A stretch of 64,000 nucleotides of DNA from positions 64,001 to 128,000 of IMG/VR virus record IMGVR_UViG_3300021426_000063; one strand, written 5' to 3'. Both the position numbers and the translations under genes were made by a program. The notes beneath the pieces are model-generated. The model was not told the DNA's origin, did not search any database, and worked only from the letters and a program-made list of their open reading frames with translations. Positions 1 to 45,274 of the stretch are shown here, piece by piece. How positions within the stretch are numbered: position 1 is the first letter of the stretch; every line of letters begins with the position of its first letter. This DNA is from a virus (lineage: Duplodnaviria; Caudoviricetes).

Positions 1-459
1 GAGTTGCTGGAGTTTTACATGTCCAGACTCATCTACTGTACCTGCTGCTCTTGAAGAGATATTCAGAGGAATTCCATCTCTTACAAGTGCCTGTGCTTCC
101 TTACCAGCTGTGGTGTTAAGGAGTCTAATCTTACCAACAATTGCATTCTGCTGTGGATCAAATTCAAGACTTTCAACAACATGTGAAACATTACCAAGTG
201 AGATTTCAAATCCATGTGGATGATCCAACTCACCAAGAAGTCTCTTACTCTCAATCTGCTCTCTCAAAGCTTCAACATGTGGAAGGAAATCAGCAGACTC
301 ATAGATTCTACCATTACGGTTTTTTGTATTGAATGATGTGAAAAGTCCAGTTAATACAATAGAATCGCTGTGTTCATTGTTTTCATTCAATGTCTGTTCC
401 ACTGAATAATCAAGTGGGGCATTAGAGCGTTCTACTATCAATAGTTTCTTCTCTTTCAT
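1..459 (-). CDS. Prohead core protease (T4 gp21-like), runs off window start
   Basis: Manual translation (absent from ORF track): MKEKKLLIVERS...NTKNRNGRIYE...LLGELDHPH...IVGKIRLLNT.AG...NISSRAAG, containing the gp21 motifs NxNGRxY, GELxHP and SSRxxG; directly downstream of the portal. Confidence 0.93.
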   Translation of the reverse strand, partial: MKEKKLLIVERSNAPLDYSVEQTLNENNEHSDSIVLTGLFTSFNTKNRNGRIYESADFLPHVEALREQIESKRLLGELDHPHGFEISLGNVSHVVESLEFDPQQNAIVGKIRLLNTTAGKEAQALVRDGIPLNISSRAAGTVDESGHVKLQQL

Positions 460-30730: not shown

Positions 30731-32500
30731 TTAGTCAACATTCTTATACTTTGATAAGTCAACCTCATGTCCATAGAATGCCTCAATCACACCAGCAACC
30801 TTACAAGCATCCTCAAATGGGATAACATCATTGCTGAAATAAGCATAATTCTCTTTACATTCTATGAGTTCATTACCATTGTAACTCAATGTCCAGGTAT
30901 CCTTACCTTCATCAAGACCTTCAATCTTCCAGTTGTCATTCTCATATACTGACTGTTTACCCTGGATGTATCTTGTGATGAGTTTCTTCAAACCACAAAG
31001 TCTGATGTTCTCACCTTCTTCAATAGTATTACTCTCATTAATCATAACACTCTCATCAACCTTCTCTACAGGAACATCAAAATTTGTTGTATTATCTGTA
31101 AGGATGAATGATCCTTCAACAACAACTGCCTTATCAGAAATCCTGTGAAGGAATTTACTACCACCAATTGCAATGTTGATATTAATATTGTCATTGACAG
31201 TCTTCAAAACAACAAGTTCATTCTTGTAGATTGTACCATTGAACCTGATGTTCATCTCTATCATAGGATCTCCCTTTCTCATACCAGAGAGTTCCATCTT
31301 ATAAGTAACACCATTGAATACAAATGATACATCATCATCCTTTGCATTGACTGAACTACACTGGAGTTCTGTGAATGTCTTATTGTCATCAAACTTCATA
31401 GCAGCATCAACACCATCACCCAAATCCTTGAAAGTGACTGTCTCATACTTACCAATCTGGTCTGAATCATACTTGGTGTACTTGAAGTCCTTGAACATAT
31501 CCATCAATGTACCAACTACATCATCGCCGGCAGCAGTGGTGATACCCTTTGTACCTGGTGATGAGTTAACCTCAATAACATAAGACTGCTTGGTCCTGGA
31601 ATCCATAATGAGGTCAACACCAGCCCATCTACAACCTGTGGCCTTTGCTGCCATCTTTGCAATCTTCTCCTGTTCAGATGTAAGGTGACCCTTCTCTGCT
31701 GTTGAACCAAGTGAATAATTACTTCTGAAATCACCAGCAAGCTGATTCCTCTGCATACAACCAATAATCTCAAAGTTCTCAATACCTGGAGTCATTCTTT
31801 CAAATCCCTTATAGAGAACATGTACACGGAGGTCATAATCTGAATTGATCTTCTCTTGAAGAAGAATATCTGCCTTTGGTACAAGAGCAAAAATGGCCTG
31901 AAGAACAGATTTCAATGAAATCATCGAATCAATCTGAGCAACACCAATACCCTGTGTACCCTTTGTAATCTTAATGATAAGAGGGAAACCACCACCAACA
32001 GCAGAAACCTTGTCTTCAAGTTTGTTCATTGAAGAGTTGGTAACAACAGAAGTCTTTGGTGTAGGAACACCTGCTGCTTTGAGCTTCTTATAAGTGATGA
32101 ACTTATCTTCACAGTTGTCAATTGCTTCAAGGGTGTTCAATACAAAGAATCCATCATTCTGGAGTTCTGTAAGGAAATCCCTTGACTCAATGTTCTTCAA
32201 AACTGTTCTTCTTGGAACAATGATAGTGTTATTTGGGTTGAGGGTGAAGGTCTTTTTAGTTTCACCATTCTCAACCACATTATAATTATCATCAGCACCC
32301 TTTGAGATAGTTGAAGAAGAAGGATCAATAGTAACCATATTCAATCCTGCTTTCCTTGCAGCATCCTCAAAGAAAAACATTGAATTAGAACTCTTTGTAG
32401 TCTTTTCTGCCCTTGATGACAAGAAAACAACCTGGATGTTCTTTGCCTTCTTACTCTCATTAAGAGGTGCATATCCTTTACTTGAATATTTCATAATCAT
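30731..32500 (-). CDS. rimK: RimK-family ATP-grasp ligase with degenerate C-terminal protease-like domain
   Basis: DKF, VPTPKT, GTQGIGV, LLQEKI, DLRVHV, FRSNYSLG, AGVDL, EVNSSPG. Confidence 0.9.
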   Translation of the reverse strand: MIMKYSSKGYAPLNESKKAKNIQVVFLSSRAEKTTKSSNSMFFFEDAARKAGLNMVTIDPSSSTISKGADDNYNVVENGETKKTFTLNPNNTIIVPRRTVLKNIESRDFLTELQNDGFFVLNTLEAIDNCEDKFITYKKLKAAGVPTPKTSVVTNSSMNKLEDKVSAVGGGFPLIIKITKGTQGIGVAQIDSMISLKSVLQAIFALVPKADILLQEKINSDYDLRVHVLYKGFERMTPGIENFEIIGCMQRNQLAGDFRSNYSLGSTAEKGHLTSEQEKIAKMAAKATGCRWAGVDLIMDSRTKQSYVIEVNSSPGTKGITTAAGDDVVGTLMDMFKDFKYTKYDSDQIGKYETVTFKDLGDGVDAAMKFDDNKTFTELQCSSVNAKDDDVSFVFNGVTYKMELSGMRKGDPMIEMNIRFNGTIYKNELVVLKTVNDNININIAIGGSKFLHRISDKAVVVEGSFILTDNTTNFDVPVEKVDESVMINESNTIEEGENIRLCGLKKLITRYIQGKQSVYENDNWKIEGLDEGKDTWTLSYNGNELIECKENYAYFSNDVIPFEDACKVAGVIEAFYGHEVDLSKYKNVD

Positions 32501-32558: not shown

Positions 32559-32858
32559 TTATTGAAGTAAATTGTTTTCTTTACAATATTCTAAAAACTG
32601 TTCCTTATCCATAATTTGTGTCTCAAGTTCAGGTCCATAATCAAACTCATCCAACACTTCCTGTTCTGAATTCATTATCCCCCTCACATCAAGATACTTA
32701 CCATTCCTGATAAGACCACAATGAACAAGAGCATAATCTTCAATATCATAATCATAATCAGTCATCACAAATATCTTATCACCAGGTCTATAGTTATCAA
32801 GAACCCACTGATGACACTGACCATGAAGGTATTCATCATATGACAGTATATTATTCAT
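32559..32858 (-). CDS. Small putative papain/transglutaminase-fold protein
   Basis: GQCH...VHC...YLDVRG gives Cys-His-Asp order. Confidence 0.5.
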   Translation of the reverse strand: MNNILSYDEYLHGQCHQWVLDNYRPGDKIFVMTDYDYDIEDYALVHCGLIRNGKYLDVRGIMNSEQEVLDEFDYGPELETQIMDKEQFLEYCKENNLLQ

Positions 32859-33703
32859 TAAAAGAAATCTCCTCTACTTACTCCATAGTAGTTATAATAA
32901 TCTTTTATCTCTCCTTCAATGTCTTCCTTTTCATATTCATTATACAATCCCTCCCAAAACTCTTTTCCAAAATCAGGATCTTCAATGAACTCCTTTACAT
33001 CAAAACAATCATCATCATTACATACTACAATCTCAGTAGGTGTGAATATAGCATCAAAAAGTTCAACACCATATTTTACAATAGGTTCATATGATGAAAC
33101 CTTATAATCTATGACAATAGTATAATTTTGATCATTGAAATCAACATCAAACTCATAAGTTAATGTCTTATTACTATCTGGTTCTATTTCACCAGCATTC
33201 TCATCAATATTACTTTCAAAATATGACCTGATTAGTTTTGTAAATTCTTCAACATCACCAAGATTGCTCTTGAATTCTGTAAGACATCTACTGTGTATAA
33301 GTTCATCCTCCTTATCTCTCAAATGCTTTACAGCACTATCCTCTGCATACTTTGGACTATCATTGAATTCATTACCAGGGTGTCTTTCATCCCTTCTTTT
33401 CTTGAATTCCTTTTGGAAGTCATCATCCTTTGCATAATAACTCAATGTCTCTATATTACCAAGGACAAGATAAGAACCATCTTCAAGTTTTATATGATAA
33501 TGTGGTGTATCATTATCCTTGAAATTATCCAATTCATTATAATCTAATGCAACACCAAGGATTTCAGAATCATCCAAGTCATATAAAAACACATTATCAG
33601 CAGAATATTCTGGCATACCATGCTGTTGAAGTATGTCTTTCAATTTACTACTTTTAAAACTCTCATTCAAAAGTGTATATTCTTCAAATTTAAATACTTT
33701 CAT
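32858..33703 (-). CDS. Acidic hypothetical late protein with capsid-targeting-like leader
   Basis: MKVFKFEEYTLLNES; 281 aa. Confidence 0.75.
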   Translation of the reverse strand: MKVFKFEEYTLLNESFKSSKLKDILQQHGMPEYSADNVFLYDLDDSEILGVALDYNELDNFKDNDTPHYHIKLEDGSYLVLGNIETLSYYAKDDDFQKEFKKRRDERHPGNEFNDSPKYAEDSAVKHLRDKEDELIHSRCLTEFKSNLGDVEEFTKLIRSYFESNIDENAGEIEPDSNKTLTYEFDVDFNDQNYTIVIDYKVSSYEPIVKYGVELFDAIFTPTEIVVCNDDDCFDVKEFIEDPDFGKEFWEGLYNEYEKEDIEGEIKDYYNYYGVSRGDFF

Positions 33704-33718
33704 ATCTATATTAAGTTA

Positions 33719-36130
33719 TTATATTCTATTTATATTATTATATGTCCTGTCAACATAATCTCTGAAATCATCTACATAATCATAAACCTTTGCATTTGGA
33801 GAATGTACACAAGGTTCATCTTCCTTTCTGAACTTCTTGGCCTTCTTCTTTTTCTTCTTAATCTGTTTCAGGAATGTTGTATAAGGGGCAACCTGATGAT
33901 AGACTATTCCAGTTGGAGATGGAAGGTCACCAGATCCAGGTTCACCATTGGGACCTGGGAAATAAGCAGCACCCATTCCACCAACATTGGCAGGGGTTGC
34001 TCCACCTGGGACACCATCACATTCAACAATCTTCTTACCATCCATAACACCAGGTGAAAAGATTCTTTTCTTTATATATGTATCCATATCTAATCTATCC
34101 CAATTTTTCTTGATGTATTCAATTATCTTATCATAATCTCCAACATTTGTGAACAAATTCTCATCCCTTCTTTTTTCAATATACTTTATAAGACCTTCAC
34201 AATCATTCTCCTTTCTACAAGATGGTGGTGGAGGAACAATATGATTTTGTATATAATGTGCTCTTTCTCTCCTACAATACATCAATGTAAATTGATTTAA
34301 TGAATTAATCTCCTTATCAGAAAGAATTTCATCTTCAATTCTGTTATCTTCACCAGAACCCCTTCTCATCATATCTCCCCAGGCAGATTCATTCATACCA
34401 TTTTCCTTTTCTTTTTCTTCTTCTTTAATAAATCCCTCAATATCTTTCTCAATATCATCAGTCCAATGACTGTCTATGTATTTGATGATATTCACAATAT
34501 TTATATCCTCATTGAATTTGAGATGTTCCCTAACACATTTACAAAACTTCTCCCTGCTGAACTTCTCATTATCCCAAACAACCCTTATTGCAAATTCATT
34601 CATAGAATCTACAATAGCATCCATATCTGTTTGAGTTATCTCATCCTCTTTCCTTATCTGTTCACCAGAACCCCTTCTCATCATATCTCCCCAGGCAGAT
34701 TCATTGACACCTTTCTCCTTAAGATATGTTTCTATCTGTGTTTCAAAATCACTATCATTCCACATATCATCAGGATCATAATACTTCTCTTCATCAGTAA
34801 GAACCTGATTTATTTCATACATCAAATCATCCTTATATGGGTATGAATCCCACCAATCATTAAGTGTTTTTTCTATTGATTTTCCGGGTTCTTTTACAAA
34901 TCCAAGTTTTTTAATTTTTTCTTCCTCTTTGTTTATTTCTTCATTGACTTGTGATTCATAATTCTTACCTTTATTCCAATTTGCCTCAACATATATTACA
35001 ATATCTTTAACCATTTTCTTACCAACATTCTCATGAGTTTTTGAATCATACATATTATTCTTATAACTCTTACTCATAAACTCTTTGAAGTCATCAATAG
35101 AATTCTTATACAAATCCTCATATACAATTTTTTTGGCAAAACATCTAATATCAGCTTTAACACTATTAAGAAAACCTGTATCTTCTCCCCTAACTTCCTC
35201 ACCAGAACCTCTCCTCATCATATCACCCCAGGCAGATTCATTCATATTATTTTTCCTTTTGATTTGTTTTTCTAATGGTTTCTCTACCCTATCCAAAATA
35301 AAATCAAGAACTTCAATGAAGAAACTATTTGACATAGAGACTTCTGCTTGATTTTTTGGATATATGTTTACATTCTCAACCCCAAATCTATTGGTTTTTA
35401 ATTGTATCAAATATTTTTGTTTTAATTCCCTCTCACAATCAAGTAACTCAAAGACATTCTTTTGTGTTGTAATATGAGATTCATCATAGTACAAATAACT
35501 TAAATATCCAGCAGTATCTTCAAAAAGACAAATAGTCAAATAACCTTCATCAACATATATAGTAGCATCATATGGTGCTATACTTTCATAATTTGACCTC
35601 AAATAATCACATAGTTCTTCAAGTCCAAAGTTATTTATATCATCTTCTTCCCTGATTTCTTCACCAGAACCTCTTCTCATCATATCACCCCAGGCTGATT
35701 CAGTCACAAGTATATTATCAATATTATCTAAAAAGAAATCAATGACATCTATATATGTCTGATTTGTACAAGTACCATCTTTTTCTTTTATAATCCTTCT
35801 ATTTACACTAGGATTTTCTACTTTAAACCTTTCTGATAATTTATCAAAGAAAGACATACTTATTTTTTCTTTTGACCAGGATAATAAAACATGAAGTAAT
35901 CCACCATTACCATCAGGTTTTAAGATTAATGATATATTAGTTAATACATCAACATAAATTTCATTATACCAAGTCTTGTCTAAATAAAATACTTTCTTAT
36001 CATACCTGGATTTAATATAATCATAAAGACCATCCAAATCAAGAAGATTCACACCATCCTCTGTTCTGATGTTTTCACCAGAACCTCTTCTCATCATATC
36101 ACCCCAGGCTGATTCACTAATCTTTCTCAT
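33719..36130 (-). CDS. Modular polyprotein with five ESAWGDMMRRGSGE tags
   Basis: 803 aa; five tag copies separate modules of about 100-180 aa. Confidence 0.85.
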   Translation of the reverse strand: MRKISESAWGDMMRRGSGENIRTEDGVNLLDLDGLYDYIKSRYDKKVFYLDKTWYNEIYVDVLTNISLILKPDGNGGLLHVLLSWSKEKISMSFFDKLSERFKVENPSVNRRIIKEKDGTCTNQTYIDVIDFFLDNIDNILVTESAWGDMMRRGSGEEIREEDDINNFGLEELCDYLRSNYESIAPYDATIYVDEGYLTICLFEDTAGYLSYLYYDESHITTQKNVFELLDCERELKQKYLIQLKTNRFGVENVNIYPKNQAEVSMSNSFFIEVLDFILDRVEKPLEKQIKRKNNMNESAWGDMMRRGSGEEVRGEDTGFLNSVKADIRCFAKKIVYEDLYKNSIDDFKEFMSKSYKNNMYDSKTHENVGKKMVKDIVIYVEANWNKGKNYESQVNEEINKEEEKIKKLGFVKEPGKSIEKTLNDWWDSYPYKDDLMYEINQVLTDEEKYYDPDDMWNDSDFETQIETYLKEKGVNESAWGDMMRRGSGEQIRKEDEITQTDMDAIVDSMNEFAIRVVWDNEKFSREKFCKCVREHLKFNEDINIVNIIKYIDSHWTDDIEKDIEGFIKEEEKEKENGMNESAWGDMMRRGSGEDNRIEDEILSDKEINSLNQFTLMYCRRERAHYIQNHIVPPPPSCRKENDCEGLIKYIEKRRDENLFTNVGDYDKIIEYIKKNWDRLDMDTYIKKRIFSPGVMDGKKIVECDGVPGGATPANVGGMGAAYFPGPNGEPGSGDLPSPTGIVYHQVAPYTTFLKQIKKKKKKAKKFRKEDEPCVHSPNAKVYDYVDDFRDYVDRTYNNINRI
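34349..36115 (-). repeat. Five 42-bp tag repeats (34349-34390, 34661-34702, 35198-35239, 35660-35701, 36074-36115)
   Basis: GAATCWGCCTGGGGWGATATGATGAGRAGRGGTTCTGGTGAR on the minus strand, in frame. Confidence 0.95.
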
Positions 36131-36159
36131 ACTAGTATTTATGAAAAAAGGTGGGGAAA

Positions 36160-37026
36160 TTACTCCTCACCTTTCAGGATTTTATCCAATGTATTGTCTG
36201 GGATTTTGTCTATATAAATCTTCTCATAAGTACCATCATCCTTCAACCAGACAAGAACTCTATCTATAATCTTTATACCTATTGATTCAAGCATCCTCTG
36301 GTAGATATTGAACTGTAATGTATAGTGCGAAAGCGGTTCATCAATAAACTTTGACATACATCCTGTCATCATAACACCATTGGTTCTTGAAAATTCCTTT
36401 ATCAAAGACTTGTTTGTTTTCCAGTCTCCAATGACATATCCATCCTTATCGCTGTCATAGAAAAGAAGGTCACAGGTACCACAAATCTTTTCTGCCCATT
36501 CCAAATACTGTGTTGACAACTTGAACTCTGCTCCAACAGGATGGAGGTTCTTCTCCAGTTCATCATAGAACTTCTTCACAGCATCCTCCTTTGGATAGGT
36601 AGAAACCATTGTGTTATACTCCTCAATGTACTGTGGTTTGTTCTGCTCACAGATAAGTTCAGGATGACCACACAACAGATTGGTATAAGATTCTCCAAAC
36701 TCATGTGTCCTGGTACCAGAGATTGTTGCTTTCAGGTTATTGAGTTTCCAATCCCTCTGTACATCCTCTTTCCTCTTACCCCATTTGAGTGCATAATCTG
36801 TGGCCTTCTGTTCCCAGTCAACAACTGGTTCATACCTTTTTATAACATTACTTACAGGAATATATTCATCTTCACCAATGAAATACTGATGCCCTTCTTC
36901 AAGAAACTTGATATTACCAAACTTGTTTCCTATCAAATCCCTACATTCATTGACCTTATTATTCACAAGGTTCTTATCTATCACCTTCTTTTCAAAGGAG
37001 TTATTGAAAATATCATCAAAATCCAT
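36160..37026 (-). CDS. PD-(D/E)xK exonuclease
   Basis: GTRTH, GTCDLL, GDWKT, LQFNIY; start moved to MDFDD. Confidence 0.85.
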   Translation of the reverse strand: MDFDDIFNNSFEKKVIDKNLVNNKVNECRDLIGNKFGNIKFLEEGHQYFIGEDEYIPVSNVIKRYEPVVDWEQKATDYALKWGKRKEDVQRDWKLNNLKATISGTRTHEFGESYTNLLCGHPELICEQNKPQYIEEYNTMVSTYPKEDAVKKFYDELEKNLHPVGAEFKLSTQYLEWAEKICGTCDLLFYDSDKDGYVIGDWKTNKSLIKEFSRTNGVMMTGCMSKFIDEPLSHYTLQFNIYQRMLESIGIKIIDRVLVWLKDDGTYEKIYIDKIPDNTLDKILKGEE

Positions 37027-37030
37027 ATCC

Positions 37031-37300
37031 CTACAATTTACCAATTATCATTTCAGGAGTAATAACAACATACTCCACATCTTCAACCTTCATATAGATA
37101 CCTCCCATATCAGCAAAGGCAATGTGGTCTCCTTTCTTCCATTCATTTTCAAGGCCAACACTGTCGATCACACCAGTATATGGTTCTGGTATCTCATATA
37201 CATTCTTTGATTGCTGTTCAGGAAGAATCAAAGGAGAATTCTTCTCATCCTTATCCTTCACCAAAATAACAACATCATTTACTGCCTGGAACTTTATCAT
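37031..37300 (-). CDS. groES: GroES-like co-chaperonin
   Basis: AVNDVVIL, LILP, GVIDSVG, KGDHI, IIG; 89 aa. Confidence 0.8.
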   Translation of the reverse strand: MIKFQAVNDVVILVKDKDEKNSPLILPEQQSKNVYEIPEPYTGVIDSVGLENEWKKGDHIAFADMGGIYMKVEDVEYVVITPEMIIGKL

Positions 37301-38358
37301 AATCTGTCTCTATATTCAATCATTTTCTCCTGTACACTCTTCAACATCTCTTCTGTCAAATCCTGCTTTTGAAGAAAATCTTCCATATATTCATCACTAC
37401 TCTTGGCATCATTAAAATTAAATTCCCCGGTTGTATCCAGTTCCTGCATCACATTATCACCAATGGGTTGAAAACTTCTGTAACTACCCTTCAATATGGA
37501 ACATAAATCATCAAAATTACACTTTGTGATGTCACTGTTCTTCATATGAAGTTCAATCCTGTTGTTCTTCCACCTTTCTTTCAGTTCACCAACAGTCATA
37601 TTAAGAATATCATAAATGTTCTCCTTCATATATTTTGGTGTTACTGTGTTCTCAATGAACCTTGTTTCACCAGTCTTGATGTCAAGTACAGTTATACCCT
37701 TTGGATTATCCCTATCACCCCTATCCTTATGATAAGGATTTCCAATATAATGAATGTTCTTATTATCCTGTCTGATGTGGATGTGACCAGCATAAACCTG
37801 TGCAGTCTTAAAGTCTCCACCCTGAACACCACCAGAAACATTGATTTTTACACCAGACCTGTTAGATACCTGTGAACCATTGATTTCAAGATGACCAAAG
37901 ATATAATCCACATTCACCCCAGCAAGTATCTGCTTCTCCTTTTCTGGATCCTCCACCCAGGGGTTGAAAAGACAGGATTTTCCATCAATCACATCTACTT
38001 CCGGTGTATAATACACCTTCACATGTGGGATATACTTCAACATATTGATGGAAGTGATGTCATTGATAGACTTCTTCATAATATCATGGTTACCAACAGT
38101 TATCCTGATGTCATTGAAGATTGCAGAAAATTCTTCAAAAAGTTTGATTGTTCTGTATATGGTATTCAATCCAATAGTAGAACGGTTGTCAAACACATCA
38201 CCACAATGAATGAGAATATCTTCCTTCCCTGCTTCCTTCTTCATAAGAGGTATGACAACATCTTCAAAGTAACCTATATAATCATTAAGCCACTCTTCCT
38301 CATCACCCTTATATCCAAAGTGAGTATCTGCTATAAGCCAAATCTTTCTATTTCCCAT
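37297..38358 (-). CDS. Mre11/SbcD-like nuclease (T4 gp47-like)
   Basis: ADTHFG, GDVFD, GNHD, GHLE, GHIH, YIGNPY. Confidence 0.92.
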   Translation of the reverse strand: MGNRKIWLIADTHFGYKGDEEEWLNDYIGYFEDVVIPLMKKEAGKEDILIHCGDVFDNRSTIGLNTIYRTIKLFEEFSAIFNDIRITVGNHDIMKKSINDITSINMLKYIPHVKVYYTPEVDVIDGKSCLFNPWVEDPEKEKQILAGVNVDYIFGHLEINGSQVSNRSGVKINVSGGVQGGDFKTAQVYAGHIHIRQDNKNIHYIGNPYHKDRGDRDNPKGITVLDIKTGETRFIENTVTPKYMKENIYDILNMTVGELKERWKNNRIELHMKNSDITKCNFDDLCSILKGSYRSFQPIGDNVMQELDTTGEFNFNDAKSSDEYMEDFLQKQDLTEEMLKSVQEKMIEYRDRL

Positions 38359-38406
38359 ACAATAAATATAACAACAAAGGTGGTAAATTAATCACCACCT
38401 TTGTAA

Positions 38407-38676
38407 TTATTCATTGTTTAACTGTAATCTATCAAGTTCAGCTGCAATAAATGCTCCAACTTTCTTGAGGTTTTCAACATCTCCATCATTATGAAAATAC
38501 TTCAAATCAAATGGCCAATCAGATGTTGATTCACAACCCATTGCAGCCTTTAAATAAGTAAGTGCTGCCCTGAGTAATTCATTGTTCTGATATCCACAAT
38601 CATGTTGAGGAGTATATCCATGCTTGGAAATCTGCTTCTCCCTCTCCTCTGCAATAAGTTCAATACCTGTCTTCAT
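38407..38676 (-). CDS. Conserved hypothetical phage protein
   Basis: IAEEREKQ...WPF...LKKVGAFIAAELDRL. Confidence 0.75.
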   Translation of the reverse strand: MKTGIELIAEEREKQISKHGYTPQHDCGYQNNELLRAALTYLKAAMGCESTSDWPFDLKYFHNDGDVENLKKVGAFIAAELDRLQLNNE

Positions 38677-38682
38677 AATAAA

Positions 38683-39492
38683 TTAAATTAAACCCCATTC
38701 TGCAAAGGCCTCAAAGCCACCAATAGAGTCAATATATCCCTTGGCGACATTCACAATTTCAGAATATGGAATACCATTCACTTCAGTATCTCCAATAGCA
38801 CAGCAATAAGTCTGGGTCTTTCCAGTCCTCTGTGCCTCAAGGAAAGCATAGATGTTCACTGATACATCAGCCTTGGAGATGTCCTTACCATGGAGACCAC
38901 CACCAGTGACAGACCTACCCATATCAGAACCAAGTTTCCTGTTGGTTGCACCAGAATCTACATTAGGACCACCAGTCCAGTCACCAAGAGGATTCACAAT
39001 GACTGTATAATGAGGATAACTTGTCTCTAACCACTCTTTCAACATAGTAGAATCAGCATTACTCTGACAAATAATAATCTTATTGTTCTTCTCATCCAGG
39101 ATGTATTTACCATCAGTAGGATATGCATTATAGATGTCCTGTGCAATCTGACTGAGTTCCATTTCCTCACCATCAAGAGGTTCACCCTTAAAGATACCAT
39201 TGTCACCACAACGGATTGCACCATCCTGGTTTTCAGCAAGATGAACATCCTGTGGAACAGCAAGAAGGTTTACTTTCAAACCATCACCAGCAATCCTCTT
39301 GACAATAGGTTCAACATTCTCATTAGTGAATTCAAAACTTGACTCTGTAATGATAGTACAGAGACCATGTCCAATAAGCACTTCAACAGCAACCTTTGGA
39401 GTTTCCTGATTGGCATATGCAAGGTCAACAAGAGCACCAGCAATCCTGTCCGCTACTTTATCAGGATGATTAGGATTAACTTTTTCAAACAT
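38683..39492 (-). CDS. metK: S-adenosylmethionine synthetase (short phage type)
   Basis: HPDKVADRI, GDNG, DGK, GGPNVDSGATNRK, GGGLHGKDISKAD. Confidence 0.9.
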   Translation of the reverse strand: MFEKVNPNHPDKVADRIAGALVDLAYANQETPKVAVEVLIGHGLCTIITESSFEFTNENVEPIVKRIAGDGLKVNLLAVPQDVHLAENQDGAIRCGDNGIFKGEPLDGEEMELSQIAQDIYNAYPTDGKYILDEKNNKIIICQSNADSTMLKEWLETSYPHYTVIVNPLGDWTGGPNVDSGATNRKLGSDMGRSVTGGGLHGKDISKADVSVNIYAFLEAQRTGKTQTYCCAIGDTEVNGIPYSEIVNVAKGYIDSIGGFEAFAEWGLI

Positions 39493-39577
39493 ACTATATA
39501 AGATTAAAAATTAACATTCTTTTACAATCTTAAATATAACAAAACCTCATAAATATTATATCACAATTTTTTAACAA

Positions 39578-40879
39578 ATGAAGAAATTAAGTAAAATAGA
39601 TGAATCCGCCTGGGGTGATATGATGAGAAGAGGTGCAGGAGAAACCAGAAGAAGAGAAGATGGTGTCAAGGTTCACACTTGTATTGATGTAGATATCTAT
39701 CTAATAAATGTTTCTGATTCTTATTATGAAGAACTCATAAAAGAAATCCTTGATTATAATAACAGTTCTGTTGAACATAAAGTTGCAATCTTGAATACTA
39801 TAGACAAGGCATATTCTACAGAAGAAATGAAAAATATCAGGGCATTTGAAGCTCCTTATACTTATCTAATCTATGATGGAGAACATGGTACAGACCTGAT
39901 TGCTGAATTCTGGACATATGATGAGATGAAAGACTTTGACTTGGATGACTTTGAAGACAGAGTACCTGAAGAAGATTATATATCAATCTGTAAAGGTATT
40001 GCAACCAAGTTGAAAGAAGTTGGTGGAGACATTGAATACCTACCAAGATTTAAAGGTAGTTTTATTGCAACAAAATCTAATAATATATCTGATTATGATA
40101 GTGATTATGTCTTACAGTTAATTGATGAATCAGATGTATATGATTGGGAAATACAATATACTGACAAATATGGTGAAGGAAGTACTGCCACCTGCTTGGA
40201 TGATTATAAAGAAAGTATGATTGACACATTCCCTGAATTAAATGATGTTGTTTTCATCACCTGGTCATTCAACAATTATGCTTGTAACATTGGTATCCCT
40301 ATCACAGCAACAACAGTGAAGAACTTCAAGAAATATAAAGAATATACTAAAAACTGGTTTACAGTAGATGAAATTGATGAATCTGCCTGGGGTAATATGA
40401 TGAGAAGAGGTTCTGGTGAAAAAGAAAGAAGAGAGGATATCATAAACTCCAATGTGAAAGATATAAAACCTGTTGACTTGGGATTATCTGTTCTCTGGGC
40501 AGACAAGGATCTTGAAATTAATGATGAGTATGAATTTACCATTGATGAGATTGCTGATTATACACCAGATGGATGGAGAAGACCAACACAAAAAGAGGCA
40601 GATGAATTATTACATAATACTAAAAAATCAGTAGACCAAGATTTATCTCCAAAAACATTTAAGAGAATCTTCAAATTATCAAACAATGGTGTTGATCTTT
40701 ATTTCAGTTGTAAAAATCTTAAAGAAAAAGCTGAATATTGGGAACTCGATAAAGGTAATATGGATAAATATTGGAATACATTTGTTCTTGAAGAATCTGG
40801 ATCATTTGTTGCACATTCAGCATATCAAATAGCAAAACCAGATGAAAAACATAGAGTGAGATTTGTTAGAGAAAAATAA
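39578..40879 (+). CDS. Two-module SAWG-tag protein; second module DUF1566/Fib_succ_major-like
   Basis: Tags at 39602 and 40379; VDLGLSVLWAD, GWRRPT..E, VRFVRE. Confidence 0.8.
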   Translation: MKKLSKIDESAWGDMMRRGAGETRRREDGVKVHTCIDVDIYLINVSDSYYEELIKEILDYNNSSVEHKVAILNTIDKAYSTEEMKNIRAFEAPYTYLIYDGEHGTDLIAEFWTYDEMKDFDLDDFEDRVPEEDYISICKGIATKLKEVGGDIEYLPRFKGSFIATKSNNISDYDSDYVLQLIDESDVYDWEIQYTDKYGEGSTATCLDDYKESMIDTFPELNDVVFITWSFNNYACNIGIPITATTVKNFKKYKEYTKNWFTVDEIDESAWGNMMRRGSGEKERREDIINSNVKDIKPVDLGLSVLWADKDLEINDEYEFTIDEIADYTPDGWRRPTQKEADELLHNTKKSVDQDLSPKTFKRIFKLSNNGVDLYFSCKNLKEKAEYWELDKGNMDKYWNTFVLEESGSFVAHSAYQIAKPDEKHRVRFVREK

Positions 40880-40881
40880 GT

Positions 40882-41514
40882 ATGATTAAGATAGGAATAG
40901 ATTACAGTCTCATATCCCCGGCGATATGTGTTTATAAAGATGGAGAGTATTCTTTCATCTCCTTCTTTGATGATTATGGTAAGAACTGGAAGGCTGGTAA
41001 GATAAAAGCATTCAACTATCATAAGGAACTCTCTGAATTTATGGAGATGAATCCTTATACAAGACATATTGAAAAGAAAGATTACAGGGAAGAGCAGAAG
41101 ACAAAGATGGCTGCTGCGAAGATGATCGCACATAAAATCTCCAACAGATTGGTTGAAATTGTTGGTGATGAAGAGGTCATCATTGGACTTGAAGGATTCT
41201 CTTATGGAAGTATCTCTTCATCTACACTGGACTTGGCACTGTTCAACTCATTCCTCAGAATTAAACTTCTGGAGGACTTTGGTGAGGATTGTCTTGTCAT
41301 CATCTCTCCAACTGAAGGTAAGAAAAACCTTTCTGGTAAGGGTAATGCCAAGAAGGAAGATATGATCCAGGCTTTCATTGAGAACAGAACCAATGACCCT
41401 GACATTGAAAGATGTCCTTTCTGGAAGTACTGTAAAGAAAATGAATTAGATTATAAAAACATAAAACCTATTGATGACCTTGTGGATTCATATGGTATAT
41501 TGAGAAGCATATGA
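40882..41514 (+). CDS. RuvC-like Holliday junction resolvase
   Basis: IGIDYS, LEGFSYG, GKGNAKKEDM, DDLVDS. Confidence 0.8.
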   Translation: MIKIGIDYSLISPAICVYKDGEYSFISFFDDYGKNWKAGKIKAFNYHKELSEFMEMNPYTRHIEKKDYREEQKTKMAAAKMIAHKISNRLVEIVGDEEVIIGLEGFSYGSISSSTLDLALFNSFLRIKLLEDFGEDCLVIISPTEGKKNLSGKGNAKKEDMIQAFIENRTNDPDIERCPFWKYCKENELDYKNIKPIDDLVDSYGILRSI

Positions 41515-42005
41515 AAAAGTTAAGTAAAATAGATGAATCTGCCTGGGGTGATATGATGAGAAGAGGCTCAGGTGAAACTGTAAGGGAGGAAGATAAGTTC
41601 AATCCTGATTATGTTGACTTTGGTGAAAACACAACAGTCTATTGGGCAATTGATAATCTTGAGATTGATGGTGAGGTGAAATTTTATTTTAATGATGTAA
41701 AGGATTACAACAACAATGGTTGGAGACTTCCTACTGTTGATGAAGTGAATCAATTGAAATGGAATATAAGGATTTCTTGGTATGATGGTTGTAAACATCT
41801 GAGATTTAATGATGGAAATGAATTAAGACTCAATATCAATGGGAGTGGGGGATTCCATATGTGGACAAAAGAAATTAATCCTAAATTTCCAACAGGAGCA
41901 TTTTCATATGGATTTGATAATATGGATAATTTCAATATCAGTAGTTTCAACATATCCATCAACAAACTCTTTGTTTTCCTTGTAAAAGATAAAAAACTTA
42001 TTTAA
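41511..42005 (+). CDS. SAWG-tag protein, DUF1566-like payload
   Basis: Tag; YVDFG, YWA, GWRLPT..E, MWT, VFLVKD. Confidence 0.8.
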   Translation: MKKLSKIDESAWGDMMRRGSGETVREEDKFNPDYVDFGENTTVYWAIDNLEIDGEVKFYFNDVKDYNNNGWRLPTVDEVNQLKWNIRISWYDGCKHLRFNDGNELRLNINGSGGFHMWTKEINPKFPTGAFSYGFDNMDNFNISSFNISINKLFVFLVKDKKLI

Positions 42006-42008
42006 GAA

Positions 42009-42584
42009 ATGAAAAAGTTAAGTAAAATAGATGAATCCGCCTGGGGTGATATGATGAAAAGAGGTTCTGGTGAGATTGTAAGGAAGGAAGATGATCTCAC
42101 AAACATAAAATCCCTGAAACCACTTGATATGGGAGGATCTGTTTTGTGGGCAGATGATGACCTTTCATTAAAAGATGAAGATGACTGTTATTTTACATTT
42201 GATGAAGCATTTGAACTTATTAAAAACAGTGATTGGAGACTCCCAACACTTGAAGAAGTTGCAGAACTTGATGATATTTATATAAAAGGTTCATTCTGGG
42301 AAAATGATGATAGATTTGTATTTGATGGATTTCCACATCAATTAGTATTCTTCAAGAAAGGTTTAATATATACATCTGCAAGTGATAAACCTATAGATGA
42401 AGATTATTATTATTGTTGGACATCATCTCTTTCTCCAAATAATAGTAAATATGCAAATATATTTACTTTTAATAATGGTATACCTTGTCACACACCATTA
42501 AATGATCAACATAATGTCAATAATAGTGTAACACAAGATACAACTAATGGTAAACTCTGTGTAAGATTAGTAAAAGATAAATGA
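42009..42584 (+). CDS. SAWG-tag protein, DUF1566-like payload
   Basis: Tag; DMGGSVLWAD, WRLPTLEE, CWTSS, VRLVKD. Confidence 0.8.
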   Translation: MKKLSKIDESAWGDMMKRGSGEIVRKEDDLTNIKSLKPLDMGGSVLWADDDLSLKDEDDCYFTFDEAFELIKNSDWRLPTLEEVAELDDIYIKGSFWENDDRFVFDGFPHQLVFFKKGLIYTSASDKPIDEDYYYCWTSSLSPNNSKYANIFTFNNGIPCHTPLNDQHNVNNSVTQDTTNGKLCVRLVKDK

Positions 42585-42585
42585 T

Positions 42586-43134
42586 ATGAAGAAGTTAAGT
42601 AAAATAGATGAATCCGCCTGGGGTGATATGATGAGGCGAGGTTCCGGTGAAGACATCAGAAAGGAAGATGATTTAACAAATCTTAAAGAAATTGTTCCAA
42701 TTGATATGGGTGTGTCTGTCCTTTGGGCAGATAGAGACCTGGAGTACAAAATTGATGATACCTGTTATTTAACATATGAAGATGCTGAAAGTATTTTCAA
42801 AAATACAGGATGGAGATTTCCAACAAAGGAAGAGACATTAGAACTTTTTAAGTATACCAGAATTATGAAAAACACAGATAATGTGTGTATTCTCGAAGGA
42901 GACTTTGATGGAGGACCACAACTTATATTTAATAAAAATGGTTATAAACTTGGAAATTCTGACCAATTATTTAAAGAATATTGTTATTGTTGTTGGACAT
43001 CTACAGAATACAAACCTTCTCCAGAAGCATATTATATGATGAACATCCAACAATATCAAAGTCATATTCCTATGCATAAAGAAAATAGAGTACCTGCCAG
43101 ACTGGTTAAAGACAAAGAAAAAAGAGAGGATTAA
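42586..43134 (+). CDS. SAWG-tag protein, DUF1566-like payload
   Basis: Tag; DMGVSVLWAD, GWRFPTKEE, CWTST, ARLVKD. Confidence 0.8.
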   Translation: MKKLSKIDESAWGDMMRRGSGEDIRKEDDLTNLKEIVPIDMGVSVLWADRDLEYKIDDTCYLTYEDAESIFKNTGWRFPTKEETLELFKYTRIMKNTDNVCILEGDFDGGPQLIFNKNGYKLGNSDQLFKEYCYCCWTSTEYKPSPEAYYMMNIQQYQSHIPMHKENRVPARLVKDKEKRED

Positions 43135-43146
43135 ATCCTCTCTTTT
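43119..43146. terminator. Bidirectional terminator
   Basis: AAAAGAGAGGAT-TAA-ATCCTCTCTTTT. Confidence 0.8.
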
Positions 43147-43166
43147 GTTTAATGTGATGTCCAGGT

Positions 43167-44024
43167 TTATGCAAAGCGGACAGGAGTAAGAACCACATAG
43201 GTCTTGGTACCCTTTGCATCCACAGAGATGAACTTAATCTTGTTGCTGTGGAACTCAATGTCATAGTGTTCATCTGAATCAATCCAGACAAAGTATGACT
43301 TGTTGAAGCAGCGGAGGTAAGGTTCCTCACTCTGACTTTCAAGATTCTCATAAGTGAGTTTCTTGGTATAAAGCTTGTCAAAAGCATCAAACTCAAGAAT
43401 CTTACAATCATCAAGGAAACCATTAACAGTCTCACGGACATTCTCATCAGTACTCTCAATTTCAGAGACAAGTACCACATCACCACTGATGGAGAAGAAT
43501 ACTCTACAAGACTCCTTATTAAGAGCAAAGAGCTGTGAGAGATACTTGAACTCATTCTCTGAAATACCAACCTTATATTCAAGGGTAGAATTATCCTCAA
43601 AGATGGTATGACGGGCATGTTCAGGAATCTCCAGGAATGCAAGTGCCTCCTTGTCAGCAGCTGGAACAGTAAGGTTAACCTCTACATTGGCAACAACCAC
43701 CTTCTTTGCATAACCATTATCCTCAATGTAGAATGTTACATCCACACCCTCTGTACCAACAAGACCAAGTACAGAAATGAGTTTGCCTGCATTGGTGAAC
43801 TGAATCTTGACAAGTTCATCTTCAAGTTCATTCACAAAACTCTCACAATACTGATTAAGGTCAGCAGTGATGGACTTCAATGCAGATTTGTTCTTATTGT
43901 AGGCAGTTGATTCAAACTGACTACCTCTCACATTGATAAAAATGAAGTTATCCAGTGAACTAGATTTCTTAAACAGTGATATCACCTCACGAGTATCACA
44001 ATTCTTTAAAATGATTTTCTTCAT
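43167..44024 (-). CDS. Putative sliding clamp (T4 gp45-like)
   Basis: 285 aa, acidic alpha/beta pattern, near the polymerase, middle-type promoter; no diagnostic motif. Confidence 0.5.
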   Translation of the reverse strand: MKKIILKNCDTREVISLFKKSSSLDNFIFINVRGSQFESTAYNKNKSALKSITADLNQYCESFVNELEDELVKIQFTNAGKLISVLGLVGTEGVDVTFYIEDNGYAKKVVVANVEVNLTVPAADKEALAFLEIPEHARHTIFEDNSTLEYKVGISENEFKYLSQLFALNKESCRVFFSISGDVVLVSEIESTDENVRETVNGFLDDCKILEFDAFDKLYTKKLTYENLESQSEEPYLRCFNKSYFVWIDSDEHYDIEFHSNKIKFISVDAKGTKTYVVLTPVRFA

Positions 44025-44074
44025 ACTATTTAACTATTAGAATTTTCTATACACTAAATATAACAAATAAATTC

Positions 44075-45274
44075 TTATTTTTTATTCCAATCTATATCTT
44101 TTAACCATTTATTTTTCCTTGCTATTTCATATAAATATGAATAATTATCTCTGAATTCTTTTATTGAATCATACTGTTTAACAATTTCTAAAACATTTTC
44201 TTTATTCCATTTCTTACCAGTTTTTGATTCTTCTAACCAAGGCATCTGATTAAAAAGATTATTTCTTCTTACATATGCATATCCACAAGGACATTTTAAT
44301 CTAAACTCATTTCTTGTTTTATATTGTTTAGATTCATTAATTACCATATCATCTGTCCACATAATATGTTTTGGTTTTAACCAGGTCATCTCATCTAACC
44401 AACCATTTTTCAATGAAATATCATATGCAGTTCCATTGCCAAGATAAAATTCTCTTCTACTATTATATTTTTTAGATTCATTAATAACCATATCCTTATT
44501 CCAATATTTAAGTTTTGGTTTTAACCAGGTCATCTCATCTAATAATTTATATTTCAGAGCACAAGTATATGCTGTTGATGAATTCTTTTTGAAATCATTT
44601 TTATTATCATATTTTTTAGATTCATTTATCACAGCATCTTTTGTCCATTTATTAGATTTACCTCCAATAGAACTAGAGAATTCACCAGTCTTTGCAACAT
44701 TTAACAAATGATATCCCATATTCTCATATGTTTTACTCCATTCATTTTCTTTTATCTTTGCATCATTAACTGATAAATTTTCTTCAAGATAAATTGGTTC
44801 TGGAACATTTTTACACATATTTGTAAAATATTTAAAAACACTTGTTTGACAAATATGATTTTTATATATACCTGTCTTATGTGTATTATGTCTTGTTATT
44901 TTATCTCTTGTTAATCCAACATATGCAACTTTATTATCATCATCAATATAAACATATATTGAATATGGATACTTCATATCTTTTTCTTTTAACCAGGTTA
45001 ATTCTTTCAACCAACCATTTTTTCTTGCTGATTCATATGCACAAAAAGAATGTTTTCTGAAATCACTTATATATTCATATTTTTTAGATTCATTAAAAAC
45101 ATTTTCCTTGTTCCATTTATGTAGTTTATATTTTAACCAAGTAAATTCTTTCAACCAACCATTATCCTTTGATATTTTATAAAGACCTCCATAGTCTTTT
45201 CTCAAATCATTAAAATACTCATATTTTTGAGCAATTTCAATTACCTTTTCTTTTGTCCATTTATTGTATTTCAT
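44075..45274 (-). CDS. Free-standing GIY-YIG endonuclease with six repeats of about 48 aa
   Basis: SIYVY...AYVGLT...R...H; repeats KW(T/N)K..V..ESKKY...F...AY..A...WL.E.TWL; markedly AT-rich. Confidence 0.8.
   Translation of the reverse strand: MKYNKWTKEKVIEIAQKYEYFNDLRKDYGGLYKISKDNGWLKEFTWLKYKLHKWNKENVFNESKKYEYISDFRKHSFCAYESARKNGWLKELTWLKEKDMKYPYSIYVYIDDDNKVAYVGLTRDKITRHNTHKTGIYKNHICQTSVFKYFTNMCKNVPEPIYLEENLSVNDAKIKENEWSKTYENMGYHLLNVAKTGEFSSSIGGKSNKWTKDAVINESKKYDNKNDFKKNSSTAYTCALKYKLLDEMTWLKPKLKYWNKDMVINESKKYNSRREFYLGNGTAYDISLKNGWLDEMTWLKPKHIMWTDDMVINESKQYKTRNEFRLKCPCGYAYVRRNNLFNQMPWLEESKTGKKWNKENVLEIVKQYDSIKEFRDNYSYLYEIARKNKWLKDIDWNKK

Follow-up and report, generated by a model that had tools for sequence, protein, structure and literature searches.

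The stretch of DNA analysed here (the window) is 64,000 nucleotides (nt) long and covers positions 64001–128000 of a single 233,103-bp contig with 35% G+C, the IMG/VR virus record IMGVR_UViG_3300021426_000063 (Duplodnaviria; Caudoviricetes). Between window positions 33719 and 43134 it carries five genes whose products are built around a short recurrent peptide, called the tag below. A first-pass annotation, made by a model from the letters and their open reading frames, reported ten near-identical copies of the pattern E-SAWG(D/N)MM(R/K)RG(S/A)GE-xx-R-x-ED in these five genes, on both strands, each behind a hydrophobic-x-Glu triplet. All ten copies are found at the positions it gave, and the triplets read ISE, VTE, MNE, VNE and MNE, then IDE five times. 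The tag is 19 residues long and begins with the Ser that follows the Glu.

On the minus strand, positions 33719–36130 encode a polyprotein of 803 amino acids (aa) with five consecutive tag-plus-payload modules, whose payloads are type A, type A, family 2, family 6 and family 3. Its tags lie at 36053–36112 (tag 1, after MRKISE), 35639–35698 (tag 2, after VTE), 35177–35236 (tag 3, after MNE), 34640–34699 (tag 4, after VNE) and 34328–34387 (tag 5, after MNE), with the Ser of SAWG at 36112, 35698, 35236, 34699 and 34387. On the plus strand, a 433-aa protein (39578–40879) consists of the leader MKKLSKIDE, a tag (39605–39664), a 258-aa payload of family 7, the triplet IDE, a second tag (40382–40441) and a lectin-like domain; its relative P0038 stops before the second tag. 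Three small plus-strand genes share a simpler plan (MKKLSKIDE, tag, and lectin-like domain): a 164-aa protein (41511–42005, tag 41538–41597), a 191-aa protein (42009–42584, tag 42036–42095), and a 182-aa protein (42586–43134, tag 42613–42672). In these plus-strand genes the Ser of SAWG stands at 39605, 40382, 41538, 42036 and 42613. The annotation had proposed searching the full genome and related phages with a hidden Markov model (HMM) of the tag. This search brought up an eleventh copy beyond the window (genome position 158822, minus strand), after IGE in a sixth gene (157854–159230, also minus strand), and the payloads of relatives were catalogued. An unfiltered HMM scan of the six-frame translated genome at maximum sensitivity returned no copies beyond these 11.

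Among the copies, 14 of 33 aligned columns are invariant, which excludes a chance origin. The 13 core codons of the 11 copies show 18 synonymous versus 3 non-synonymous departures from the majority codon; the peptide is therefore under purifying selection, and the copies are not merely fresh DNA duplicates. There is also some residual sameness at the DNA level: the copies share the same codon at a rate of 0.72, versus 0.50 expected from genome codon usage, and the Ala at the second codon after the predicted cut is GCC in 11/11 copies, a codon that makes up 11% of Ala codons genome-wide. The stretch GCCTGGGG is invariant in the DNA of all 11 tags, while nearby synonymous sites vary.

The tag belongs to a large family. 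A profile built from the ten copies and scored against 1.84 billion representative metagenomic proteins (E<=1e-3) matches 207 representative proteins, which carry up to 7 tags each at a median spacing of 153 residues; orthologous polyproteins of 33719–36130 carry 3–7 tags. The consensus of 426 tags is φ-(N)-E↓S-(V/I/A)-W-(G/S)-D-(M/I)-x-x-R-(S/G)-x-G-(E/D)-x-(V/I)-(R/K)-K-E-D, where φ is hydrophobic and the arrow marks the predicted cut. Glu directly precedes the tag in 98–99% of cases, Ser is its first residue in 95–97%, and at least 8 tag positions are 93–99% conserved across these 426 tags with diverged DNA. At the third residue before the cut, N-terminal copies have I/L in 93% of cases, and internal copies have V/I/T/L/M. 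In sequence terms, the position before the tag thus appears to conform to a gp21-type cleavage site, as the first-pass annotation had held. Of 196 proteins, 173 have their first tag no more than 14 residues from the protein start, behind a leader that is MKKLSKIDE-like, MKKLSE-like, or MIPDFKTYI(G/K)E (36/173).

The annotation did not recognise the tag as a described motif, and no match was found in Pfam, in PHROGs (which has no family for the five tagged proteins or the 11th gene), or by a literature search with the motif string, which returned unrelated matches only. Searches of the phage GenBank collection (megablast of the region and tblastn of the 182-aa protein) gave no match, cultured or GenBank, and no relative was confirmed in IMG/VR, whether the protein or the tag alignment served as query. 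A scan of genome contigs gave one match, a chance 11-residue hit on a high-GC bacterial contig with no tagged open reading frame, which offers no clue to the host; the tag itself was found only in phage-like metagenomic proteins. A 2A-like ribosome-skipping peptide was rejected because the first copy lies 6–9 residues from the N-terminus, where skipping would be useless, and a signal peptide because there is no hydrophobic stretch.

From these observations the first-pass annotation proposed that the tagged proteins are packaged in the prohead and cut there by the phage's own protease, so that each payload gains the same new N-terminus. The protease it had named is present: window positions 1–459 (minus strand) encode the N-terminal 153 of 645 aa of a prohead protease–scaffold fusion of the T4 gp21 family, and the first 180 residues of the complete protein match Pfam Peptidase_S77 (35.1 bits, cut-off 27). 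The remainder lies upstream of the window, the full gene spanning genome positions 62522–64459 (L003:6523–8460, minus strand), and it is adjoined by genes for a Gp23-family capsid protein, portal, sheath and tube. Between its protease domain and scaffold part stands VNE↓SYGFGD, invariant in 120 homologues. In the scaffold part a 14-residue repeat (x-x-D-Y-L-A-E-x-M-N-x-M-I-x) occurs eight times in tandem, and each unit has a predicted Y-L-A-E cleavage site; after the repeats come an acidic spacer of variable sequence and a C-terminal domain that is conserved. Such repeats would be expected of a scaffold that is chopped up. The predicted maturation site of the capsid protein has the same form, ...LNE↓SALGYAH... 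(peptide at the predicted cut, SALGYAHLNPNMNVGGMGAAYFPGANPNNGYDGVR). Here (L/I/M)NE↓SA(L/M)GY is kept in all but one of 120 capsid homologues, the one having N for S, and E52 is the last Glu ahead of the conserved core that aligns with mature T4 gp23*.

The same junction is overrepresented in the proteome as a whole. The string [LIVM]NES occurs 24 times, versus 5.3 ± 2.4 in shuffled sequences (4.5-fold enrichment), and in nine proteins it falls among the first 45 residues; six of these proteins have late promoters. Several of these proteins are untagged and have T4-like leaders, e.g. MLNLKSFEDFLNE↓S on a 1927-aa enzyme. Because untagged late proteins have leaders ending in LNE↓S, cleavage and head entry are probably independent of the tag; and since these untagged predicted substrates share only the Ser after the cut, the rest of the tag would have another role. 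A complex prediction of residues 1–45 of the 182-aa protein with the full protease–scaffold protein scored 0.00, which is evidence neither way. The hint that ties the polyprotein most directly to the head is a capsid-like segment in its last module (NVGGMGAAYFPG...GSGD; 33860–33988, minus strand). By BLASTP this segment is 24/49 identical (E 2e-7) to the N-arm of the capsid protein just past the predicted cut, and it is conserved in 21 polyproteins and in capsid proteins.

Expression appears to be late. The annotation placed the tagged loci behind late promoters, and at the level of the motif this holds, with the late-type element CATAAATA preceding all three tagged units. It lies 5 nt before the ATG of the polyprotein (36136–36143, minus strand), 22 nt before the ATG at 39578 (39548–39555, plus strand), where it is the sole one for the plus-strand array, and ~22 nt before the gene with the 11th copy. 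Of 62 occurrences in the genome, 50 have a called gene start no more than 40 nt downstream; the protease, portal, sheath and tube genes are among those preceded in this way. The three small tagged genes have no promoter of their own and abut or overlap their upstream neighbours. RNA contigs of the source sample overlap parts of the tagged genes; with DNA carry-over possible, levels and ends cannot be read from them, and stretches without coverage carry no meaning. In six genes (window 36136–36143; genome 92711, 148783, 159192, 187754 and 192243) the motif ends only 4–5 nt before the ATG; a transcription start like that of T4 late promoters would give these mRNAs little or no leader. Upstream of the tagged genes, nothing resembling a Shine-Dalgarno sequence is evident.

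The tags of a genome evolve in concert. Tag identity is 79–85% within a protein, even when the payloads are unrelated or only 20–40% identical, versus 54% between proteins; conversely, payloads that are 80–100% identical carry tags that are just 71% identical. For example, P0019 and the third module of P0044 have ~92% identical payloads behind the tags SAWGDMMRRGSGE and SLWADLQDRSSGD, respectively, and the similarity switches about five residues past RKED. All 11 tags of the present genome, at three loci, are of one dialect; SIWSDIQDRSSGE is an example of a foreign one. As far as sequence patterns can tell, such dialects probably mark a label that a genome-specific partner reads, with recombination aiding or imitating the effect.

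Tagged domains also move between gene layouts. In 83 payload pairs, a standalone tagged protein corresponds to an internal module elsewhere; the payload of the 164-aa protein, for instance, recurs inside P0091. The array encoded here as separate cistrons is fused in frame in P0044 and P0091, with VNE↓S or VFE↓S at the joints. One fusion joint, ...LVKDKKPVNE↓S..., stands where this genome has ...LVKDKKLI-stop followed by Met-KKLSKIDE↓S.... A cut after Glu would give identical products from the polyprotein and the separate-gene layouts.

Cassette boundaries often coincide with tags. Compared with one syntenic relative of 229,756 bp (L001), the region falls into homology blocks at 33881–35242 (89.5%), 35639–42073 (97.7%), 42009–42824 (89.8%) and 43114–44077 (93.9%), and 3 of 5 internal breakpoints lie at tag edges. 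The breaks at 35242 and 35639 are the 5' edge of tag 3 and the 3' edge of tag 2, between which there is one payload here and two in L001. The block overlap at 42009–42073 is the leader plus tag of the 191-aa gene, where L001 has an extra tagged gene of 276 aa. Contigs from other ruminant-gut samples likewise join cassettes at tag edges; these are de Bruijn contigs, which may mis-join at repeats. One bovine-gut contig joins window position 35643, at the end of tag 2, to 41509, at the start of the 164-aa gene, in opposite orientation, and this joint may reflect either recombination between inverted tag copies or an assembly artefact at a repeat. Within the plus-strand array lies an untagged gene for a RuvC-like Holliday junction resolvase (40882–41514, plus strand; phrog_159, E 5e-14), which shares the late promoter of the array and occupies the same place in L001. 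A link of this resolvase to cassette exchange is possible.

These features invite an explanation mainly at the DNA level, in which the 60–85 nt of leader and tag serve as a homology block for cassette shuffling and the peptide is a tolerated linker that binds nothing. Such a device would account for the L001 breakpoints at tag edges, the extra tagged gene exactly between two leader-plus-tag copies, the ruminant-gut contig joints (one of them inverted), the resolvase gene in the array, the codon sharing above expectation and the invariant GCC. Against it, the 18 synonymous versus 3 non-synonymous departures and the conservation of at least 8 tag positions over 426 tags despite DNA divergence indicate that selection acts on the peptide; across dialects, moreover, the peptide pattern persists although the DNA differs too much to provide homology. 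The contig joints come from de Bruijn assemblies, which break or mis-join at repeats. As the main explanation, shuffling at the DNA level is improbable.

The payloads themselves are diverse. The annotation had counted at least four unrelated types, and BLAST clustering resolves six families among the window modules and ~40 groups among all tagged proteins once the tag is removed. The largest group is type A, a domain of roughly 130 aa (228 modules); the second is the lectin-like domain (69 modules). Smaller families in relatives include leucine-rich repeats (LRRs) of DUF285/BspA type, and some tagged proteins have a GNAT acetyltransferase ahead of the first tag. Pfam searches on 51 payload representatives recognise only GNAT (3 modules) and DUF285/LRR (4 modules), and no peptidase; type A modules have no Pfam match. 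For the polyprotein, two matches, EnY2 (29.8 bits, cut-off 27, with no single stretch passing) and Bac_chlorC (17.8 versus 25), were dismissed as spurious.

The lectin-like domain forms the second module of the 433-aa protein and the payloads of the three small proteins. The four small payloads score 15.6–23.5 bits against Pfam PF07603 (Lcl_C/DUF1566), below its cut-off of 34.9, and relatives have precomputed PF07603 matches. The top Foldseek match of the lectin-like model is the C-terminal domain of Legionella Lcl (8q4e; probability 0.99, TM-score 0.53 by target, E 0.17), and the model also resembles the fibre tip of Bdellovibrio Bd2740. AlphaFold models the 182-aa protein with a predicted local distance difference test (pLDDT) score of 87 overall and <50 for most of residues 1–24. 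With alignments, lectin-like and type A domains reach pLDDT >90, while the tags stay <50 and unpacked. The annotation had allowed that the tag might simply be an integral element of one domain; in these models it lies outside the fold in two unrelated payloads. For the type A fold, Foldseek finds nothing in the PDB at E<=0.001, and the ESM Atlas gave nothing usable. The VIA-align hits are mixed alpha/beta proteins (among them type III secretion chaperones, the MotA C-terminal domain and immunity proteins) with a best Z of 5.9, too low to signify anything beyond a widespread arrangement. The idea that the type A domain is the receptor of the tag was set aside, as AlphaFold did not dock a module's own tag on it, which is weak evidence.

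The main rival explanation starts from the nature of these folds: an uncleaved leader and tag would dock interchangeable adhesin modules (lectin-like, LRR) on one shared acceptor outside the virion, such as a fibre, whisker or capsid decoration site, and the capsid-like C-terminus would anchor the polyprotein as a decoration chain resembling Hoc. Those payloads to which a name can be given are of adhesin type, with folds like the Lcl C-terminal domain and the Bd2740 fibre tip here and DUF285/BspA LRRs in relatives. Paralogues, several per genome, diverge fast (37–48% identity), as receptor-binding proteins do; the conserved C-terminal capsid-like motif could bind the capsid, and a genome-specific dialect suits a genome-specific acceptor. 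Docking on the outside, however, gives no account of the Glu and hydrophobic residue before every tag, matching the capsid and scaffold junctions, of the same array occurring as a polyprotein or as separate genes, or of the T4-like targeting leaders on some tagged proteins. A chain with 5–7 anchors is also hard to picture. This explanation is considered unlikely; it is nonetheless stronger than shuffling at the DNA level.

The explanation preferred here, to which we give an even chance, is that the tagged proteins form a variant of the T4 system of capsid targeting sequences and internal proteins; we infer the cleavage, the location in the head, the partner of the tag and any delivery to the host. 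Each cargo domain would begin with a leader (MKKLSKIDE or MKKLSE, with the T4-like MIPDFKTYIKE in relatives) or an inter-domain junction, ending in hydrophobic-x-Glu, followed by the unstructured 19-residue tag S-x-W-x-D-φ-x-x-R-x-x-G-x-x-φ-(R/K)-K-E-D. The tagged proteins would be made late and join the prohead core, where the gp21-family protease would cut after the Glu, as predicted for the capsid protein and for its own scaffold. Separate genes and polyproteins would then yield the same free domains, each with the tag first. The tag would be dispensable for cutting and would instead be read by a phage-specific partner, most likely a component of the prohead core or shell, or the tags of other cargo; this reading would keep one dialect per genome, while the tag coding sequence would act as a joint for swapping, adding and losing cargo cassettes. 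The docking or ejection signal suggested by the first-pass annotation is one of several possible roles of the tag, beside retention, mutual association of cargo, ejection order and a function in the host. As a more tentative step, the tag may be a lineage-specific address code: a co-evolving prohead receptor would read the retained tag, domains brought in by recombination would become packaged and injected effectors, and dialects would bar cross-loading.

Several points weigh against packaged cargo. The support comes from computation, and the phage is uncultivated. The MKKLSE leaders are shorter than the 10-residue T4 targeting sequence. Other late proteins have a T4-like leader and LNE↓S but no tag. 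The tagged loci sit amid replication and recombination genes, outside the structural block. The payloads that can be named (four Lcl_C-like ones here, DUF285/BspA LRRs in relatives) are binding modules typical of surface adhesins. Finally, gene conversion could partly explain the sameness of tags within the genome; codon sharing is raised and GCC is uniform.

In a further alternative, the proteins are not virion-borne at all. The tag would be a short linear motif by which late cytoplasmic proteins all bind one factor of the phage or the host; candidates are a chaperone, an adaptor for degradation or export, and a modifying enzyme of the kind of the ATP-grasp ligase encoded nearby. The tag is indeed unstructured and portable, a Cpn10 homologue adjoins the genes, a RimK-like ATP-grasp gene is close by, and there is no direct tie of the small lectin-like proteins to the head. 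Yet the junction matches the capsid maturation site, the late-type promoter is common to structural genes, the polyprotein carries the capsid N-arm motif, and the tag was found only in phage-like metagenomic proteins. A cytoplasmic role of this kind is quite unlikely, and weaker than docking on the outside of the virion.

The neighbouring genes deserve mention in their own right. Between the two tagged loci lie a Cpn10 (GroES-like) gene (37031–37300, minus strand) and a gene for a short, 269-aa S-adenosylmethionine synthetase-like protein (38683–39492, minus strand), both assigned to their Pfam families via the syntenic relative L001. The RimK-like ATP-grasp ligase (589 aa; 30731–32500, minus strand; Pfam RimK, E 1.7e-28) has a long C-terminal extension. 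Its late promoter and the ...APLNE↓S junction near its N-terminus make this enzyme, too, a candidate for packaging; modification of the Glu/Asp-rich tags by this ligase is raised only as an idea. The gene that directly follows that of the polyprotein (32858–33703, minus strand) encodes a protein of 281 aa without a known family, which starts with MKVFKFEEYTLLNE↓S, i.e. a T4-like targeting leader and the same junction without a tag.

The cargo explanation would extend beyond one genome. Close relatives of the capsid and protease–scaffold proteins number in the thousands in metagenomes, on contigs of 230–420 kb, and the DNA itself is found in goat and bovine gut runs from several studies. As part of the preferred explanation, and with the same even confidence, the tagged phages would form a large clade of uncultivated T4-like jumbo phages of ruminant guts. 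If packaged cargo is the right reading, cargo loading works as a plug-in system, with one label, one protease rule and recombination at the label, through which effectors can be gained, lost and fused, up to 7 per precursor and with more than 15 payload families observed. It would provide a catalogue of candidate injected proteins, mostly of unknown fold and function, from abundant ruminant-gut phages; dialects would offer a natural test of co-evolution between cargo label and receptor; and engineered T4-like capsids might be loaded by means of the tag, a portable label that goes further than the classic leader of 10 residues. Should the head location be wrong, a 19-residue linear motif that is uniform within a genome and sits on unrelated domains would still point to a shared partner.

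Among known systems, the most general parallel is with the cargo-loading peptides of encapsulins and the encapsulation peptides of microcompartments, short unstructured or helical peptides that direct unrelated cargo into a protein shell; encapsulin shells share the HK97 fold with phage capsids. Encapsulin peptides are C-terminal and involve neither a protease step nor polyproteins, whereas here the tags stand at the N-terminus or inside the protein, and the shell is a capsid of the T4 Gp23 family. The peptides are not homologous to the tag, and the likeness is one of analogy only.

The T4 system is closer. The Glu after which T4 gp21 cuts is part of a short motif, and processing is controlled by residues 8 and 10 of the targeting sequence (PMC9026906). 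That sequence, MKTYQEFIAE, heads the internal proteins IPI–III; it and the Alt propeptide are cut by gp21, and the set of payloads varies among related phages (PMC9026906). The tagged proteins resemble this arrangement in having a short shared N-terminal element on unrelated payloads, (I/L)-x-E before a site, here predicted, for a gp21-family protease, and predicted late expression. The leader MIPDFKTYI(G/K)E of relatives also has the T4 spacing of an aromatic residue, an aromatic at +3, Ile at +4 and Glu at +6. MKKLSKIDE has L4, I7 and E9, to be compared with T4 targeting positions 4 and 7, while MRKISE and MKKLSE are shorter. Unlike in T4, an extra 19-residue peptide after the predicted cut would stay on the cargo here, and this tag is repeated in polyproteins of up to 7 modules, varies in genome-specific dialects and follows leaders of as few as 6 residues.

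In the giant phages phiKZ, 201phi2-1 and SPN3US, propeptides of head and ejection proteins are processed by a diverged gp21 homologue (PMC9026906; see also PMC7411985, PMC10052503). Glu-specific cutting of many head proteins in a short motif and numerous paralogous packaged proteins would be common to both systems. The propeptides of giant phages, by contrast, are removed without leaving a conserved downstream tag, and their sites read (S/A/G)-x-E or A-x-E, compared with φ-(N)-E↓S here.

Polyvalent proteins (Iyer et al. 2017, as cited in PMC7824862) are multi-domain proteins for which packaging, processing and delivery along with the DNA have been proposed, and GNAT and ART domains are among their modules. 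GNAT also occurs among the domains of tagged proteins. Polyvalent proteins are marked by many conflict-related enzymatic domains and a processing peptidase; the tagged proteins have no embedded peptidase and almost no recognisable effector domains, and the same tag heads every domain.

A shared targeting leader, a Glu-specific prohead protease and a variable set of packaged proteins are thus already known from T4 and the giant phages. What is new here is a conserved peptide downstream of the predicted cut, its repetition in polyproteins, its genome-specific dialects and its role as a joint between cassettes.

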